The notes beneath the pieces are model-generated. The model made no database searches. It had not been told where the DNA came from and worked only from the letters and a program-made list of their open reading frames with translations. The position numbers were made by a program, and so were the translations under genes. 64,000 nucleotides of DNA from Nostoc sp. DedSLP01 (GTDB taxonomy: Bacteria > Cyanobacteriota > Cyanobacteriia > Cyanobacteriales > Nostocaceae). This document shows positions 10,297-17,765 of the stretch, piece by piece (positions within the stretch are counted from its first letter, which is position 1; each line of letters starts with the position of its first letter). The stretch is taken from contig JAVRCJ020000003.1 in NCBI GenBank assembly GCA_034530875.2, forward strand, positions 160,001 through 224,000. Reading direction: 5' to 3'.

Positions 10297-10486
10297 GTGG
10301 AAAAAGGGAGTAGGGAATGGGGAATAGGGAGTAGGGAAGGAATTTAGAAATTAGAGTTATGGCGATCGCTTTTTGGTCTGAAGGCGATCGCTCTTTATCT
10401 TATTCTGATTAAAAAAAGAATTGCATTATATTTATTTTCTACTCTTTTTTTGAAGAATAATTAAATAAGCAGTAGTTGAGGTAGCT

Positions 10487-11050
10487 ATGTCTGTGCAATT
10501 ACTAAGACGGAAATTCACAGTTGAGCAATATCACAAAATGGTTGATTCGGGGATTCTGAAAGAAGATGACCGAGTGGAATTAATTCGGGGAGACATTATT
10601 GAAATGTCGCCTATTAGTACAAAACATGCTGCTTGTGTCAGGCGATTTAATAATATGTTAGGGCAGCGTTTGGGAAACCGCGTTATACTTTCTGTTCAAA
10701 ATCCCGTAGTTCTGGATAATAACTCAGAACCTCAGCCAGATGTGGCATTACTCAAACCCCGTGATGATTTCTACGCTAATGCACACCCCCAACCCCAGGA
10801 TATTTTTTTATTAATTGAAGTAGCTGATTCAACTATCGAGTATGACCGGGAAGAGAAAATCCCTTTATATGCACAAGCAAACATAATTGAAGTTTGGTTA
10901 GTAGATATTAACGAGAAAATTGTGGAAGTTTATCAACAACCAACAGCCGCAGGATATCAGCTTATGCAAAAGTTCGGTAGCAGTCAAACTTTATCAATTA
11001 AAGCCTTAAGCGATGTGAGTATTACCGTCAATGAAATCCTTGGCAGATAA
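10487..11050 (+). CDS. Uma2 (DUF820) family PD-(D/E)xK endonuclease-like protein
   Basis: RVELIRG..IEMSP...H, SEPQPDV, LLIEVADST, DREEKIPLYA and EVWLVD. Confidence 0.9.
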   Translation: MSVQLLRRKFTVEQYHKMVDSGILKEDDRVELIRGDIIEMSPISTKHAACVRRFNNMLGQRLGNRVILSVQNPVVLDNNSEPQPDVALLKPRDDFYANAHPQPQDIFLLIEVADSTIEYDREEKIPLYAQANIIEVWLVDINEKIVEVYQQPTAAGYQLMQKFGSSQTLSIKALSDVSITVNEILGR

Positions 11051-11052
11051 AA

Positions 11053-12273
11053 TTACTTCTCCTTTGATTCCTCTCTCATCCCTTCAAAACGCAAAAAATG
11101 CACCCTACCTGATTCTTCTCCTGCCACAATTGTCATGCGATCGGGTGCAACTGCACAGCAATTAATGGAACTTTCGCCTGTGAAGGTGGCAATGACCTCC
11201 ACTGTTGCCAGATTCCAGACTTTGAGGGTGTTGTCATCAGAGGCAGAAATCACCTGTTGCCCATTGGGGGTGACGGCGACGGCATTTACCGAGTAACTAT
11301 GACCATTGAGGGTGAATAGTTCCTCCCCTCTTGCCAGATTCCAGACTTTGAGGGTGTTGTCATCAGAGGCAGAAATCACCTGTTGCCCATTGGGGGTGAC
11401 GGCGATGGCATTTACCCAGTCACTATGACCCTTAAGGGTGAATAGTTCCTCCCCTGTTGCCAGATTCCAGACTTTGAGGGTGTTGTCAGAGGAAGCAGAA
11501 ATCACTTGTTGCCCATTTGGGGTGACGGCGACAGCATTTACCGAGTAACTATGACCCTTAAGGGTGAATAGTTCCTCCCCAGTTGCCAAATTCCAGACTT
11601 TGAGGGTGTGGTCATCGGATGCAGAAATCACCTGTTGCCCATTGGGGGTGATGGCGATGCCTTTTACCCAGTCACTATGACCAGTGAGGGTGAATAGTTC
11701 CTCCCCAGTTGCCAAATTCCAGACTTTGAGGGTGTTGTCAGAGGATGCAGAAATCACCTGTTGACCATTGGGGGTGACAGCGACGGCATTTACCGAGTCA
11801 CTATGACCAGTCAGGGTGCGGAGTAAGCGTCCCCCTGGTGGCGTTAAGCTTGGGGTCAAGGGACGCAGCCAAGCAGTAGCTGTCTTTTGCTTTATCTGTG
11901 TTAATAATGCCTGAATCTCCTCTGATGCTTTCTGATGTAGTAACCTTCCGTATAATTGAGTTGCTAACTGTTGCTTATCTGTTACTAAAATATGCCCTGA
12001 TAGTCTTAATGCTCCTTGAATCAATTTAAGGCTTTTGACTTTTTTAGGGTTATTTAATGCTTCTGCATCATCAATCAAATCATAATCTTCAATTAGCGCC
12101 TGTACCCCAAACTCAGGATGATTAATCTTTGCCGTTAAAAATGCAAAATCAGTCAGCGTTTGATAATATTTTTCTAAATTTCCCGAAATTACCAAATTAT
12201 AAGGAAACCTGCCCAGAAAAGCTTTGCGGGAGTAGGATTTTTTTCCTCTTGATTTCTTCTCAGTCTTCGTCAT
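11053..12273 (-). CDS. WD40-repeat protein with N-terminal helical (APAF-1/NWD-like) domain
   Basis: Five near-identical 42-aa GHS...KVWN repeats plus one divergent terminal blade; N-terminal LTDFAFL.AK / LIEDY / QLATQLYGRL segment typical of the region after NACHT domains; ATG at 12273 overlaps the upstream stop. Confidence 0.9.
   Translation of the reverse strand: MTKTEKKSRGKKSYSRKAFLGRFPYNLVISGNLEKYYQTLTDFAFLTAKINHPEFGVQALIEDYDLIDDAEALNNPKKVKSLKLIQGALRLSGHILVTDKQQLATQLYGRLLHQKASEEIQALLTQIKQKTATAWLRPLTPSLTPPGGRLLRTLTGHSDSVNAVAVTPNGQQVISASSDNTLKVWNLATGEELFTLTGHSDWVKGIAITPNGQQVISASDDHTLKVWNLATGEELFTLKGHSYSVNAVAVTPNGQQVISASSDNTLKVWNLATGEELFTLKGHSDWVNAIAVTPNGQQVISASDDNTLKVWNLARGEELFTLNGHSYSVNAVAVTPNGQQVISASDDNTLKVWNLATVEVIATFTGESSINCCAVAPDRMTIVAGEESGRVHFLRFEGMREESKEK
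11191..11820 (-). repeat. 5 x 126-bp highly conserved tandem repeat encoding WD40 blades
   Basis: TTCCAGACTTTGAGGGTG recurs every 126 bp. Confidence 0.95.
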
Positions 12274-13711
12274 CTTCGTCGTTCTCCCGTTCCCAGTAAT
12301 CAACAATCCGTTGATTCACCTCTTTAATTAGCTGACGCTTTGTATCCAAAATTGGTTTTGATTTGAGAAAATCTAGAAAACTAGCATGGTAGATGCTGTA
12401 ACAAGTGTCTTCATCTATTGTTTGTTGCTTTAAATATTCAAACCACTTATTTAAAATTTGTTGCACCTCATATTCATCTTCCTGGGCAATATCAGCAATC
12501 ATCTCACAAGGAATCGGCGTACCAATTTCTACTAAAATATACAGGATAATCACCATAATTTTATTAGGTGCAGAATCCATCTTCATCCGCACCCAATGAG
12601 TTTGATAATATTGCTGAAGACCATCTGGTAATTGCTTTAAATTAAAATCATTATATTCACCTTTAGCAATTCCCGGTAAGACATACCGCAAGTACATGAA
12701 ATTACTTTCACTTTTTGCCGCTACCTGCTCAACAAAAGCCTCACGGTTGATATTGCGGTCTTGAATCCACTTGAGCAATCCGGCTTTATAATCTACATCA
12801 TCATTGAGAAAAAAGCTAATATATTCTTGAATATCATCACGATTGTCTTTATTATATCGGCTTGCGTTTAAATCTAACTCTACCTGCTCGACACCTTCAG
12901 TATATAATCGCTTTTTACCCGGTTCATAGCGTCGCCTCGTCAGCAAAAAATAAACTTTATCTGGCAGAGTCTTAGGCAAATATAAGATATTTTCTCCCCC
13001 TGGTGCTTGCTCTACTTCATCCAACGCATCAATTACAATTACCAAGGGTTCATTCTTAGGAATTTTGCTACTAGCTTTAATTAACAAAGCTGATAAATCA
13101 TCATTATCGGCATTTTCTAAGTGATAGCGGTTAATTAGCTGCTGACGAATACTTTTGAGAAACAATTCTGGGCGATTGTTTCTTTCTTGCAAAACATTAA
13201 AGTAACAAATGGCTTTATTTTCATCAATATACTTTGCAGCTATAGCACTTTTCCCCATCCCCGCATCCCCGATTACCGTAAAATAACCTTTGGAATATTT
13301 ATTCAAGAAATCTTTAAAAGCATCAAACACAAATTTACGTCCGCAAAACGAGCGAATCTTTTCTTGAATGAGTACTTCAAACTCTGTGGAAATTTTTGAG
13401 GATGTAACAGGGTTAACAACTGGTATATTTTTATTTAATTGATAATAAGTTTCCTTCATATAAGTTCGCAAAATTTCAAATTTTCCTGCTCCTTGCTGCT
13501 TTGTCAGGTCAGGACAGCTAACTTGAAATTTTTTGTAGATACCTGCAAATCTACTTTTGACGGTAGCTTCAGTTATGTTGAGGTCTGAAGCAATCTTTAC
13601 TTGATTAATTTGTGCGTCTTCTTTCGGTAGTGCAGCTAATAAAGTTTCTTTCTGCTCAGGTGACAAACCGTGTCTACCTGCCTCTTGACTCAGAAAATCT
13701 CCCCAATCCAT
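12260..13711 (-). CDS. STAND/NACHT-type P-loop NTPase with N-terminal HTH
   Basis: FCGR motif, Walker A GDAGMGKS, Walker B LVIVIDALDE, sensor FLLTRR, NFMY, winged-helix YHASFLDFL; N-terminal KIASDLNITEATVKSRFAGIYKKF resembles a LuxR/sigma4-like HTH. Confidence 0.85.
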   Translation of the reverse strand: MDWGDFLSQEAGRHGLSPEQKETLLAALPKEDAQINQVKIASDLNITEATVKSRFAGIYKKFQVSCPDLTKQQGAGKFEILRTYMKETYYQLNKNIPVVNPVTSSKISTEFEVLIQEKIRSFCGRKFVFDAFKDFLNKYSKGYFTVIGDAGMGKSAIAAKYIDENKAICYFNVLQERNNRPELFLKSIRQQLINRYHLENADNDDLSALLIKASSKIPKNEPLVIVIDALDEVEQAPGGENILYLPKTLPDKVYFLLTRRRYEPGKKRLYTEGVEQVELDLNASRYNKDNRDDIQEYISFFLNDDVDYKAGLLKWIQDRNINREAFVEQVAAKSESNFMYLRYVLPGIAKGEYNDFNLKQLPDGLQQYYQTHWVRMKMDSAPNKIMVIILYILVEIGTPIPCEMIADIAQEDEYEVQQILNKWFEYLKQQTIDEDTCYSIYHASFLDFLKSKPILDTKRQLIKEVNQRIVDYWERENDEDDED

Positions 13712-13785
13712 TAAAATGCTTCCAAAGTCAATTTAGCAAAAATTATAACCGATTTGTTGCTTTTATTTCATGATTTTACTTATCT

Positions 13786-13863
13786 CTACCTTGAATAGAC
13801 CTTAGTTCTACGTCTCTTATATCTACTTTAATTAGGCCTATATTTATACCTTCATTAAACTTA
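13786..13863. promoter_or_regulatory. Phased imperfect direct repeats (core ACCTT) in the divergent promoter
   Basis: CTACCTT 13786, AGACCTT 13797, CTACGTC 13808; CTACTTT 13823, AGGCCTA 13834, ATACCTT 13846, AAACTTA 13857 (11-12 bp spacing). Confidence 0.4.
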
Positions 13864-13942
13864 AGCCTTAAAAAAGAATGACACGATAAAAGTGTGGATA
13901 AAAACTACAAAAAATATTGAATAAAAATCAAGGCAGGTAATT

Positions 13943-14236
13943 ATGGCTGTTAATTCTAGAAATACAACACAAAGAAATCACAACAGTAATAATATGAAAC
14001 AGGAATTGATGCAAGAATTATTACGCCAAGCTAAATTAACGTTTAACCTTGCTTTGAGTGTCACCGCTGCTTCTGCCATGATGACGTTAGGCGGTGTAGG
14101 ATTGCTCTATTTCAACAAAGTTTCTGAAGCCAGTCTCACAGCTGGAGGCGGCGCACTGGCTACTATCACCAGCGTTCAACTCGCCAAGCAAACCAAAGAA
14201 GAATTATTGGAGATTATAGAAAAATCAAATGGTTAA
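13943..14236 (+). CDS. Small two-helix membrane protein, resembling cyanobacterial TRADD-N-associated 2TM domain proteins
   Basis: RBS-like AGGCAGG; LRQAKLTFNLAL followed by two hydrophobic, Gly/Ala-rich segments; family resemblance is from memory, not searched. Confidence 0.65.
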   Translation: MAVNSRNTTQRNHNSNNMKQELMQELLRQAKLTFNLALSVTAASAMMTLGGVGLLYFNKVSEASLTAGGGALATITSVQLAKQTKEELLEIIEKSNG

Positions 14237-14313
14237 ATTTAGAAAAGATGTAGCGATTATCCCTAAAATAATCTCAAACATGGAACAATTGCCTACCCGT
14301 TTCAACTTCTAAA

Positions 14314-14544
14314 CTCAACTTTGACCTTCTGAGGCTCGACGTTGACCTTTTGAGGCTCGACGTTGACCTTCTGAGGCTCGACGTTGACCTTCTGAGGCTC
14401 GACGTTGACCTTCTGAGGCTCAACATTGACCTTCTGAGGCTCGACGTTGACCTTCTGAGGCTCGACGTTGACCTTTTGAGGCTCAACTTTGACCTTCTGA
14501 GGCTCGACGTTGACCTTCTGAGGCTCGACGTTGACCTTCTGAGG
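14314..14544. repeat. 11 x 21-bp tandem repeat, consensus CTCGACGTTGACCTTCTGAGG
   Basis: Eleven contiguous units with 0-2 substitutions each and no spacers. Confidence 0.95.
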
Positions 14545-14603
14545 TTCAACTGCGGCAATATTAACACCAATTTAATTAATGATGGCAACACATCTTTGGG
14601 TCA

Positions 14604-14627
14604 AGATGCGATTCATCGCGTCTCTAC
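14604..14627. repeat. REP-like palindrome (GTAG-type) AGATGCGATTCATCGCGTCTCTAC
   Basis: Related copies at 42239-42297 (interrupted) and 60225-60251. Confidence 0.75.
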
Positions 14628-14870
14628 AAATGGTCTATTTGTCGGTGTTGCATTATTGTGGGATGATTTTGGAATTTGCATCAACCATAATCCCTGGGTT
14701 CACGTGTCTACGTGTCCCCGTGTCAGGCTCAATCATCCCCTGATTCAGCAACGCCCTTTTTTCTAATGGGTATAACCTTGCAACCACATACATGCTTGGA
14801 TTTTTCAAGATGGCCGTGTATGGTATAGAAATGTATAGAATCTTGAAAAGATATAAAATATAGTTTTTAA

Positions 14871-15587
14871 ATGCAAACCTTTTCAGCATCTTCCTCAATG
14901 CAGCTGTCTGTACCACCAAAACACTTGCAGCCAAGAAAGATTGTCGCACTGGGAGACAGCTTAATATATGGATTTGGCGACCCGGAAAAAGGCGGTTGGA
15001 TTGAGCAACTACGGCGCTGGTGGATGTTGCCGGATAGTGCGGGTCACGTTCTTTATAATTTAGGGGTCAGGGGCGATTGCACGCAACAAGTAGCCCAAAG
15101 GTTAGAAGTTGAATTTCGCCATCGCGGTGAACTGCGAAATCGGGTTCCCGACTTGATTATTTTATCAGTAGGCGTCAACGATTCAGCGCGTTTGGCGCGT
15201 CCTGATGGGCGAAGTTACACAGATTTCAACGTCTTTGAAAAGGAAATCGCTTCTCTGTTGGATTTGGCACAACAACTCTGTCCTGTGTTATTTGTCGGCA
15301 TGGTGCCAGTAGATGAAGCTAAAATGCCATTTTTAGATTGTTTTTACTATAATCATGCAGATCAGTACCGCTACAAAGAAGCAACGCGCATCGCTTGCGA
15401 TAAACGGCAAATTCCTTATTTAGATATTTTTGATATATGGATGGAACGCAGTGAAGCTTGGCGACGCAAACGTTTGAGCGATGACGGACTTCATCCCAAT
15501 ACACTAGGTTATCAAGCCTTGTTAGAAGATGCCATAAATTGGGATGCCATTGCAAATTACCATTCTCTAGATTTGATTGCTACCTGA
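14871..15587 (+). CDS. SGNH/GDSL hydrolase
   Basis: ALGDSL, NLGVRGD, GVND and DGLHPN blocks. Confidence 0.92.
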   Translation: MQTFSASSSMQLSVPPKHLQPRKIVALGDSLIYGFGDPEKGGWIEQLRRWWMLPDSAGHVLYNLGVRGDCTQQVAQRLEVEFRHRGELRNRVPDLIILSVGVNDSARLARPDGRSYTDFNVFEKEIASLLDLAQQLCPVLFVGMVPVDEAKMPFLDCFYYNHADQYRYKEATRIACDKRQIPYLDIFDIWMERSEAWRRKRLSDDGLHPNTLGYQALLEDAINWDAIANYHSLDLIAT

Positions 15588-15694
15588 AACGATACCAATG
15601 TTAGATTTTAGATTGCAACTCTACTGTGCTGACAGCGCAACTTGGATTTTGAATTCAAGCAAAAATCCAAAATCTAAAATCTAACACTACTTCT

Positions 15695-16129
15695 ATGACA
15701 CCAACTTTACTTGGTCGCTGGCAAACTCGATTATTATTACTTGCAACCGTAGGCGTACTCGTATCTTTACCCTTTGCAATGGGTTTGATTGGTTCTGGCG
15801 CTAACTCGGTTTATTTTTGGATACTTGGTTATGTCGCCATTTTTGGTTTAGGTTGGGATGTACTTTATAATTATCTGCAAAAATTTCGCTGGGACAGAGA
15901 TTGGCCAGCAGCTTATCAACTTTTAGCTGGTATTTGGGAATTATTCTTTGTGTTCTGTGGAATTAAAGTATTTGGCTTTTTACCAATACCTTTACCGAAA
16001 GAAGAACTGTCACCAACAGATTTTTTGCTGCACTATAGCGTTGTGTGGTTAGCAGTTTTTATTAGTTCGCAAAGCCTGATGCGAATTATATTTATGCGTT
16101 GGCGTTTTCGGGGTGGAGAGTGGTTGTAA
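15695..16129 (+). CDS. Conserved hypothetical membrane protein
   Basis: Four hydrophobic segments; QKFRWDRDWP motif. Confidence 0.75.
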   Translation: MTPTLLGRWQTRLLLLATVGVLVSLPFAMGLIGSGANSVYFWILGYVAIFGLGWDVLYNYLQKFRWDRDWPAAYQLLAGIWELFFVFCGIKVFGFLPIPLPKEELSPTDFLLHYSVVWLAVFISSQSLMRIIFMRWRFRGGEWL

Positions 16130-16233
16130 TTCATAATTCGTAATTGATAATTAGTCATTTTTGAAAGTCAGATTGGATGTACGTTTGTAAATACTTGTAT
16201 TTTTAGTCTTGTCTTAAAGCAATTTTCACCAGA

Positions 16234-16265
16234 GTAGGGCTGTACAGCTAGCTGTACGCCCCTAC
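16234..16265. repeat. REP-like palindrome GTAGGGCTGTACAGCTAGCTGTACGCCCCTAC
   Basis: GTAG...CTAC-bounded imperfect palindrome in intergenic DNA. Confidence 0.65.
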
Positions 16266-16475
16266 CTTTATATATTCACTTTAATACCAGTCAGAAGTCA
16301 GCAATAGAGCCAGGAAGATTCTATCTGACTTCTTCTCTATAGAAGCCGAATGAAGACTATTTTCGGGTTCTACCTGGAAATTAGATTTTTTGCTGGGCGA
16401 AACAGATGAAGTACTTTATACTTTTTACACATCCTCTGAAAATTTCCAATTTTAATTTCTACTGAAGAAACTAGA

Positions 16476-17765
16476 ATGTCAAATTTTGATTTAGTTATTA
16501 AGCTTTTTCTGCAACTCACAGTAATTTTAGCTACTTGTCGCATCGTTACGATTTTAGGACGCCGCTATCTTGGTCAAACGGATGTTGTTTGCGAAATGAT
16601 AGCAGGTGTGATGTTAGGGCCATCACTTCTAGGTTTGATTGCACCAGATTTTCAGCAATGGCTATTTCCTAAGCTACCGATTATCACTGCTTTAGGAGAC
16701 AAGATACCCAATCCATCGATGTCGATTTTATATGCTATCAGTCAAATTGGATTAGCAATTTATATGTTTTTGGTTGGTCTAGAGTTCAACACAAAACTCT
16801 TGAAACACCATATTAAAAGTGCAGGTTTATTATCTGCGGCAGGAATTATTACTCCTTTTGTCTTAGGAGCGATCGCTTCTTTTTTCTTATATCACAATGA
16901 CAATTTCTTTCAACCAAAAGTACTGCCTTGGTCAGCCGCTTTATATCTAGGCGCGTCGATGACAATCACCGCTTTTCCAATGTTAGCTCGCATTATTTAC
17001 GAACGCGGACTTGCACAAACTCGCTTCGGTACTTTGGCTTTAGGCGCAGCATCGGTAGATGATGGAGTTGCTTGGTGTTTGCTGGCGATCGTTCTTGCTA
17101 GCGTAAAAAATTCTATAAATATCGCCATCTTAGCAATTGGTGGTGGCATTTGCTACGTTCTATTTGCTATTTTTATCGGGCAACGTCTACTTAAAGTCTT
17201 TACCCATATAACAAAACGCGATGCAGGTGTGAATAGACAAACCCTGACTTTATTGTTGATAGTTTTGATGTTTTGTACGTGGTTTACTGATATCACAGGT
17301 ATCTATGCAATATTCGGTGCATTTGTGTTGGGAGCAATAACACCACGCGGGGAATTTGCTCAACAAATTCGCCAATATACAGAGTTTTTCACAACTTCTT
17401 TTTTACTGCCGATATTTTTTGTCTTTTCTGGATTGAATACCCAAATCGGATTAGTCAACACACCTTTGTTATGGGGAATCACTCTGTTAATTTTAGCGAT
17501 CGCAATTCTCGGTAAAGGTATTGCTTGTATGTTAGCAGCTAAATTAGCAGGAGAAAATTGGCGCGAATCAGCAACTATCGGCGCTCTAATGAATGCTCGG
17601 GGTTTAATGGAGTTAATCATCCTTAATATTGGCCTCGAACAAGGTATAATCACCCCCACTTTATTCACTATTATGGTTATTATGGCTGTGGTTACTACAC
17701 TTATGGCATCACCGTTAATTGCCTTCTTCTTGAAAGGTACAAGTTACGATAAATTTCACGTTTAA
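16476..17765 (+). CDS. Cation:proton antiporter (CPA2, Kef/CHX-like)
   Basis: EMIAGVMLGPS, TAFPMLARI, ASVDD and LMNARGLMELIILNIG. Confidence 0.92.
   Translation: MSNFDLVIKLFLQLTVILATCRIVTILGRRYLGQTDVVCEMIAGVMLGPSLLGLIAPDFQQWLFPKLPIITALGDKIPNPSMSILYAISQIGLAIYMFLVGLEFNTKLLKHHIKSAGLLSAAGIITPFVLGAIASFFLYHNDNFFQPKVLPWSAALYLGASMTITAFPMLARIIYERGLAQTRFGTLALGAASVDDGVAWCLLAIVLASVKNSINIAILAIGGGICYVLFAIFIGQRLLKVFTHITKRDAGVNRQTLTLLLIVLMFCTWFTDITGIYAIFGAFVLGAITPRGEFAQQIRQYTEFFTTSFLLPIFFVFSGLNTQIGLVNTPLLWGITLLILAIAILGKGIACMLAAKLAGENWRESATIGALMNARGLMELIILNIGLEQGIITPTLFTIMVIMAVVTTLMASPLIAFFLKGTSYDKFHV

Follow-up and report, generated by a model that had tools for sequence, protein, structure and literature searches.

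Can an NLR-like protein act by controlling a gene rather than through an effector of its own? To our knowledge, the bacterial NLR-like proteins tested so far deliver their output through fused enzymes or membrane domains. This question is raised by a three-gene module of Nostoc sp. DedSLP01, located in the window analysed here (64,000 nt; contig JAVRCJ020000003.1, positions 160,001 to 224,000). The module comprises an NTPase gene with an N-terminal helix-turn-helix (HTH) domain, a second gene encoding a helical domain and WD40 repeats, and, divergently transcribed at a distance of 231 bp from the NTPase gene, a gene for a 97-aa protein of the PF20712 (CyanoTRADDas_TM) family, hereafter the 2TM gene (Table 1). 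This layout had been proposed in an initial annotation made from the sequence alone, and its open reading frame (ORF) positions, 14-nt overlap and divergent spacing were all recovered. The overlap of the NTPase and WD40 genes probably reflects translational coupling. The closest named records to the locus were Nostoc sp. ChiSLP01 and Nostoc calcicola FACHB-3891. The comparisons described below strongly suggest that the HTH controls the 2TM promoter. Opinion is evenly balanced on the full model, in which the module would be a ligand-gated transcription switch with MalT-like action and NLR anatomy, divided over two genes.

Putative operators follow the type of HTH head

The N-terminus of the NTPase protein is an HTH; the initial annotation had noted that it resembled an HTH more than an enzyme. 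A profile built from 27 homologues of this domain matched ChrA (E 5e-5), CviR and GerE. The predicted structure (pLDDT 92) matched the folds of NarL (Z 8.1, root-mean-square deviation 2.1 over 64 residues) and Spo0A-C (Z 8.2); a Z of ca. 8 is middling and leaves the two tied, although it is consistent with the profile result. With the isolated HTH as query, Foldseek found nothing at E up to 0.001. The exact subclass, LuxR/NarL-like (type A), is less sure, as the Pfam GerE match was below the cut-off (E 0.0016). At E up to 0.001, the HTH profile retrieved 614 cluster representatives, and a STAND-type NTPase was present in at least 46 of the 60 scanned. An HTH-based scan of the genome contigs returned three loci only.

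The same NTPase core carries different heads in different strains. NTPase matches at E up to 1e-40 numbered 204, spread over 90 of the 127 genus genomes, and the genus counts given here rest on the best-scoring 111 of these matches. Type A heads were found at four loci, type B heads at seven, NNH5-labelled heads at 94 (Pfam was run on one of these and the rest were assigned by N-terminal sequence, a few being contig-cut or broken) and other heads, including EAD4 and EAD10, at six. The type B head is a Cro/XRE HTH unrelated to type A, with HTH_26 above the cut-off. Separately, an NTPase with tandem HTHs (LuxR type, then Cro type) was seen facing a 93-aa one-helix protein (L223:1240-2865).

Upstream of the 2TM gene in the window, direct boxes start at 13785, 13796, 13807, 13822, ~13833 (degenerate, by eye), 13845 and 13856, and the box spacing of type A is 12, 11, 15, 11 and 11 bp. 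A matrix trained on 10 loci of other genera scored 47–66 at all four type A loci versus ≤ 11 at the 107 others (7 type B, 100 other). Among the 17.1 million positions of the host genome (G000), a single site exceeded 22, namely the window array (47.5). Type B loci have paired inverted AGGGCA half-sites instead of boxes. This element, defined on the genus loci, was present in two to five exact copies at 8/8 new type B loci bearing a 2TM gene, against a chance expectation of 0.23 per 700 bp. In a sister clade, a 40% identical HTH resides on an NB-ARC-TPR protein and three related boxes lie 11 bp apart; these loci (G000:C47:25100-27867; L157–L170) face a conserved one-helix peptide of 50–100 aa without a Pfam match. 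An 11-bp periodicity was detected in 18 of 33 HTH-facing intergenic regions versus 5 of 45 controls, with type B and DRT8 loci negative; the rows are related and the test is descriptive.

Where repeat elements have been inserted, operators of both kinds still lie approximately 70–165 nt from the 2TM start, whereas the HTH start is anywhere from approximately 70 to 594 nt away. The arrays thus appear to be anchored to the 2TM promoter and not to the NTPase start. The distance from box to extended −10 (TGn[C/G]AnnAT) was 34 nt at 13 of 15 type A loci, with the remaining pair in register, and that from the last half-site to TAnGAT was 28 nt at 9 of 15 type B loci. No conserved −35 hexamer was found at the 2TM promoters of either type, and the proximal site sits at that position. 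An ECF-sigma reading of a conserved ACTT-N16-TGACA was rejected, since ACTT is in phase with the boxes and was read as the most proximal box. Contigs from RNA runs probably hold DNA, because they are up to 117–163 kb long, and are uninformative on expression, strand or start.

In the tree of the NTPase (53 rows, including 27 of the 94 NNH5-labelled loci), types A and B are intermixed in three strongly supported clades, and at least three changes between them are required on the 2TM tree. The HTH and its operator thus seem to form an internal cassette that has been swapped, while the two genes it lies between remained paired.

Table 1. Coordinates of the module and its predicted elements in the window
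Feature	Position	Strand	Description and basis
NTPase gene	12260..13711	-	483 aa; HTH, NACHT-type nucleotide-binding domain, HD1, winged helix
LuxR/NarL-like HTH (type A)	13427..13711	-	aa 1-95; profiles and predicted structure
Walker A, GDAGMGKS	13247..13270	-	aa 148-155; alignment
Walker B with NACHT D[GAS]hDE signature	13016..13039	-	aa 225-232, ends DALDE; alignment
Helical and WD40 gene (sensor half)	11053..12273	-	406 aa; ATG at 12273
WD40 repeat array	11196..11818	-	126-bp unit, 4.9 copies; 86-93% identity, differences bunched at few positions
NTPase stop/WD40 gene start overlap	12260..12273	-	14 nt
97-aa PF20712 (CyanoTRADDas_TM) gene	13943..14236	+	Predicted target; membrane hairpin protein
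Operator array, direct boxes A[AG]GTATA	13785..13862	-	Putative; motif matrix and eye
Extended −10 of the membrane gene (TGnCACGAT)	13879..13887	+	Predicted; 34 nt past the 13845 box; probable +1 near 13894
TATAAT, −10 of the NTPase operon	13742..13747	-	Predicted; noted by eye at most type A loci

Linkage of the 2TM gene with HTH-headed genes

A profile (hidden Markov model) search identified the 97-aa protein as a member of PF20712 (E 4e-17; 62.4 bits vs. gathering threshold 24.3). Pfam gave no SLATT match in this protein, and ESM Atlas returned only PF20712 clusters plus one unnamed lead at 0.85. TRADD-N (PF20694) was not matched in any of the three window proteins, whereas other 2TM partners do match it. 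Downstream (3′) of the gene, a 21-bp tandem repeat at 14314-14544 was noted, with 11 copies and a 7-bp-unit build; similar repeats occur many times in sequenced runs.

All 11 of the type A and B loci had the 2TM gene in head-to-head orientation, versus none of the 100 other genus loci; L140, among the 100, has a weak XRE-like head. In a family sample (251 genomes), it was found beside 14 of 15 further type A loci, and at the exception (L146) the gene was truncated and the boxes were missing as well. In a phylum sample (401 genomes), 8 of 13 type B loci from beyond the genus had a neighbouring 2TM gene, three faced other small ORFs and two faced a PLD-like gene. The last two (L226, L227) are distant type B HTH-NTPase loci, and the facing gene encodes 267 aa with a cysteine-rich N-terminus and the PLD-like domain; at L226 it had been taken by eye as NYN-like, which the domain match replaced. 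Another inverted repeat was seen by eye between the divergent genes of both loci.

The linkage was also surveyed from the side of the membrane gene. Of 87 PF20712 matches in the genus, 79 were viewed, with 38 facing a gene with an N-terminal HTH, 4 unclear and 37 not facing one. The family was present in 40 of the 401 phylum-sample genomes, concentrated in few families; by eye, 25 of the best 30 of 57 matches faced such an HTH gene, the best 30 being skewed to the 2TM subfamily of the window. The partners included NACHT, NB-ARC, AAA_35 and TRADD-N with pentapeptide or STAS, the HTH assignment of several resting on homology to weak Pfam matches, and near-identical 2TM proteins were paired with unrelated HTHs. 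At five loci (L179–L182, L207), the gene facing PF20712 encoded a stand-alone XRE regulator and the next one a PIN_3 protein. The domain also terminates a GAF protein of 1199 aa and is embedded in multi-helix proteins of 255 aa (L174, L038, L041, L042). One further partner was a 626-aa fusion of a type-A-like HTH with a reverse transcriptase (L214:7641-10062, G048:C43), assigned by PADLOC to DRT8 (E 5e-125); its intergenic region contained neither a type A array nor an 11-bp signal. Its neighbours by eye were an integrase-like gene and look-alikes of nifK, nifE and nifN. Linkage of the 2TM gene to HTH-STAND genes was thus borne out in many genomes.

An NLR-like protein divided over two genes

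The NTPase has the features of a NACHT-clade STAND protein, namely intact Walker A and B motifs, HD1 and a winged helix with a conserved histidine. Its Walker B carries D[GAS]hDE, a NACHT signature according to the available text of Kibby et al. (bioRxiv 10.1101/2022.07.19.500537). The full set of motifs claimed at the outset was confirmed: GDAGMGKS, DALDE and the winged-helix His442 were all present, and G153, K154, D228–E232 and H442 were unchanged across 17 aligned homologues. Pfam matched NPHP3_N above the cut-off and AAA_22; NACHT was below the cut-off (E 5e-5). The predicted structure (pLDDT 86) matched APAF-1 (top), CED-4, plant NLRs and MalT (8bob). PADLOC and NCBIfam gave no family call for the NTPase. 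The Avs1b model scored 33.8 bits against a cut-off of 1500 (E 3e-14, NTPase core only), placing the protein outside Avs, and NF003420 scored 19.9 bits against 537 (E 1.5e-4), placing it outside MalT/LAL. A homologue with 30% identity was seen on a plasmid of Bradyrhizobium barranii (L289), where it underlies a gene annotated as a serine protease and the two next genes, amid transposases.

The second gene encodes an APAF1_C-like helical domain (aa 1–145; E 0.003) followed by five near-identical WD40 repeats and one degenerate repeat. Judging from sequence comparison, it is the arm and sensor of an NLR-like protein, because fused homologues exist (in 3 of 16 long homologues the NTPase is continued by the helical domain and WD40 repeats) and the partner aligns with one of these, P0011, over its C-terminal half (hhalign E 1.6e-51). 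The two proteins presumably bind each other. The acidic tail of the NTPase (12260-12290) was observed to pair with a basic partner N-terminus, and another tail type with a different partner start; this could represent a docking pair or a by-product of overlapping purine-rich frames.

The split between the two genes is genuine. Fusions were found at none of the 111 genus loci, and at 103 of them the NTPase gene was followed, with a measurable gap, by a partner encoding the shared helical domain; the gap was between −14 and +14 nt at 85 of these. A paralogous pair in the host genome is split likewise, and contigs of two other studies span the junction, indel-free among the matches listed. A frameshift artefact was accordingly ruled out. 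The paralogous pair (G000:C10:28747-34136) has an NNH5 head and is followed by a Uma2 gene and a second, head-less NTPase homologue, an arrangement that recurs across many genomes of the genus.

The sensor repeats vary in number. A strain from another sequencing run has two more WD40 repeats than the window allele, and the length of complete WD40 partners lies anywhere between 73 and 826 aa. Variable WD40 positions had a ratio of nonsynonymous to synonymous polymorphism (pN/pS) of 0.88 versus 0.17 elsewhere, the positions having been picked post hoc and the latter figure being depressed by the pattern filter. Positive selection was not demonstrated by this ratio.

Turnover of the locus

The site adjacent to the GDSL gene, compared across 30 loci, held HTH modules at five, NNH5 modules at eight and remnants at two; 12 were empty and three unjudgeable. 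Stops and frameshifts are frequent, and plasmid copies of the cassette exist; among culturable strains, it is carried by Trichormus variabilis ATCC 29413 on plasmid D and by Leptolyngbya boryana on pLBX. At five loci (L002, L005, L142, L149, L151), the NTPase gene is broken and the 2TM gene next to it intact, the HTH part being mostly still encoded. At L259, a fragment of the 2TM gene was seen alone between the Uma2 and GDSL genes, which is a scar of module loss. The Uma2-family gene of the window (10487-11050; PADLOC PDC-S03 model, E 1e-18) lies tail-to-tail with the WD40 gene, and its counterpart is kept at sites without the module as well (L260, L265).

A gap without HIP1 sites around the module had been noted in the initial annotation. 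The gap exists (10391-16869), and gaps of this length are rare in the genome (19/7496), but its value as evidence is weak. Half of it consists of core genes, and the chance of zero sites in the 3.2-kb module alone is approximately 0.06. The adjacent GDSL gene has lost a HIP1 site that its counterparts have at 28 of 29 other genus loci. A site does occur in the paralogous locus on C10. The gap was consequently set aside as a mark of recent foreign origin.

Proposed mechanism and alternative explanations

The following sequence of events is proposed. The WD40 protein would provide the arm and sensor and dock on the NTPase protein, and its variable WD40 face would bind a ligand, most likely a protein of phage or other non-self origin. 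By analogy with STAND biology, the ligand would open a closed state and allow the NTPase to oligomerise. The clustered HTHs would then bind the phased boxes, as the co-variation of HTH and operator suggests; boxes one helical turn apart would suit an oligomer on one face of the DNA. Once bound, they would switch on the single divergent gene at a weak promoter lacking a −35 hexamer. Such a promoter, combined with rigid box spacing, suits activation. The HTH-specific arrays fixed to the 2TM promoter thus support the transcriptional coupling proposed in the initial annotation, whereas the direction of control is suggested by geometry, which makes activation the probable mode. The induced membrane hairpin would be the output, most plausibly damaging or isolating the cell within the filament. 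This is the weakest step, and toxicity or pore formation by the 2TM product can be suggested only with hesitation.

A role in defence or non-self sensing is somewhat favoured. The available text of PMC9226505 describes DRT8 as a tested anti-phage system that protects against T5. Patchy presence, swapping, decay, repeat turnover, plasmid copies and the DRT8 partner fit conflict better than core development. The substitution of a PLD-like gene for the 2TM gene at two loci also speaks for defence.

Several observations weigh against this scheme. The second predicted transmembrane helix of the PF20712 protein is only weakly hydrophobic (19-residue means of 1.4 for the first helix and ca. 0.8 for the second), and the description as two transmembrane helices leans partly on the Pfam name. 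HTH-NTPase loci without a 2TM gene exist (L140, L146, L223–L227), approximately half of the genus PF20712 genes face no HTH gene, and PF20712 is also fused to GAF proteins. The change between HTH and NNH5 heads occurred only one to two times on the NTPase tree, making the head association weak as a statistical test. The six repeats of the window allele are one fewer than a closed seven-blade propeller, and the array may be contracted or assembly-collapsed; the pN/pS of the variable WD40 positions does not exceed 1. No defence library called the system. The proximal box over the −35 position fits repression too.

Repression is accordingly the first alternative. The HTH-NTPase would repress the 2TM promoter until a trigger (ligand, proteolysis or host shut-off) lifted it, in a guard or toxin–antitoxin logic. 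Cro/XRE-type HTHs are often repressors, and the type B head, like those of most other partners, belongs to this class. With both HTH types the −35 position lies under the proximal site, and stand-alone XRE genes also face the 2TM gene. However, the boxes are clear of the −10 and the start site of a promoter without a −35 hexamer, and retention of the 2TM gene next to a damaged NTPase gene would be costly were a toxin released, with the qualification that the HTH part is mostly retained there. We therefore regard repression as unlikely.

A non-immune role of the same switch is quite unlikely. In this case, a host, symbiotic or developmental cue would be sensed, and the 2TM protein would be a signal or modulator in filament differentiation. 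The STAND transcription factors MalT, GutR and AfsR are classed as non-immune in the available part of a STAND survey (10.64898/2026.01.04.697583), and both the silence of the defence libraries and the concentration of the 2TM family in few families would be in keeping with it. The patchiness, allele swapping, decay, repeat turnover, plasmid copies and DRT8 partner argue in the opposite direction.

Alternatively, the 2TM protein might bind the HTH-NTPase or WD40 protein and shut off or tether the switch, with the output elsewhere. A one-gene regulon and mild 2TM hydrophobicity would fit such feedback, and MalT is kept inactive by protein inhibitors such as MalY (available text of PMC4381067). 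This is very unlikely, given that near-identical 2TM proteins accompany unrelated HTHs, the family accompanies unrelated sensor bodies, other peptides or a PLD-like enzyme replace it, and no further array-bearing target was found in the host genome, so that a feedback loop would be left with nothing else to control. Finally, passenger linkage, with co-travelling genes and repeats that only autoregulate the NTPase, could draw on the non-independence of relatives and on the 11-bp periodicity in some control regions, but is scarcely credible because the arrays track the 2TM promoter across insertions and differ between HTH types, with both flanking genes remaining related.

Returning to the ligand-gated activation of the 2TM gene, a general immunity layer leading from NLR through transcription to effector may be tentatively envisaged in filamentous cyanobacteria, based on a portable cassette of HTH, operator and divergent gene that is exchanged as a unit. 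Oligomerisation of unrelated sensors (split NACHT-WD40, NB-ARC-TPR, NACHT-HEAT, AAA_35, TRADD-N-pentapeptide and DRT8) would then be converted into transcription of a gene for death or isolation. For one of the hundreds of HTH-headed cyanobacterial STAND proteins, a target gene, putative operator and specificity swap are now proposed, and the role of cyanobacterial NLR expansions, long open, becomes testable. If the role is immune, the module would represent a bacterial counterpart to NLR-driven transcription and would bear on the way in which self-harm is limited in a multicellular bacterium, with the effector kept unexpressed.

Comparison with known systems

The circuit was not found in the literature search, which covered sources open without subscription; the supplements of both bioRxiv papers may list such neighbourhoods. 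The accessible portions of Kaur et al. 2020, 10.64898/2026.01.04.697583, PMC11897194 and PMC13236601 did not describe it, and the regulator in the accessible portion of PMC13236601 is a separate repressor. In the available text and supplements of Kaur et al. 2021 (PMC8195603), the 2TM family, its divergent placement and operators were not found; an ECF-like HTH in HTH-TRADD-N proteins was taken there as pointing to a transcriptional response. Such HTH-TRADD-N genes face the 2TM gene at many loci in our samples. The HTH, TRADD-N and pentapeptide systems share with the window locus the 2TM family, which is named for its TRADD-N association, and differ from it in the TRADD-N domain, which was not found in the window locus.

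The HTH of MalT is C-terminal and of the LuxR type. The present module resembles MalT in combining a STAND NTPase, a repeat sensor and an HTH, and in having, at the sequence level, a MalT/LAL-like box array upstream of the target promoter. The available text of PMC4381067 describes a TPR-type sensor and inducer-driven multimerisation that leads to cooperative binding of several boxes and polymerase recruitment. Unlike MalT, the HTH is N-terminal and swappable here, the WD40 sensor is on a separate gene and the Walker B is of the NACHT type, so that the single chain with a C-terminal HTH typical of MalT/LAL is absent; a single adjacent divergent target takes the place of a metabolic regulon.

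With bacterial NACHT and Avs proteins, the module shares the NACHT signature, the effector–NTPase–sensor plan and a variable N-terminus. In the available text of Kibby et al., DNA-binding domains are among the predicted NACHT adaptors for a transcriptional response. The module differs from these proteins in being split between the winged helix and the arm, in having a non-enzymatic head with a putative operator and target, and in scoring far under the Avs1b cut-off. The single-chain tripartite architecture of NLR-like proteins was not seen at the genus loci, and fusions are rare elsewhere.

The WD40 repeats of HET-E are near-identical, variable at few positions and variable in number. The repeats described here are likewise highly similar and vary at few positions and in number, as in the HET-E/D NWD proteins, and APAF-1 is represented by the top NTPase fold match and the APAF1_C-like arm. 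Cyanobacterial APAF-1 homologues are noted in the available part of 10.64898/2026.01.04.697583. Unlike APAF-1 and HET-E/D, the module consists of two genes and has a DNA-binding head where those proteins carry CARD or HET death domains. The parts are thus known, and the new element, as far as the literature search reached, is the portable cassette of HTH, operator and target.

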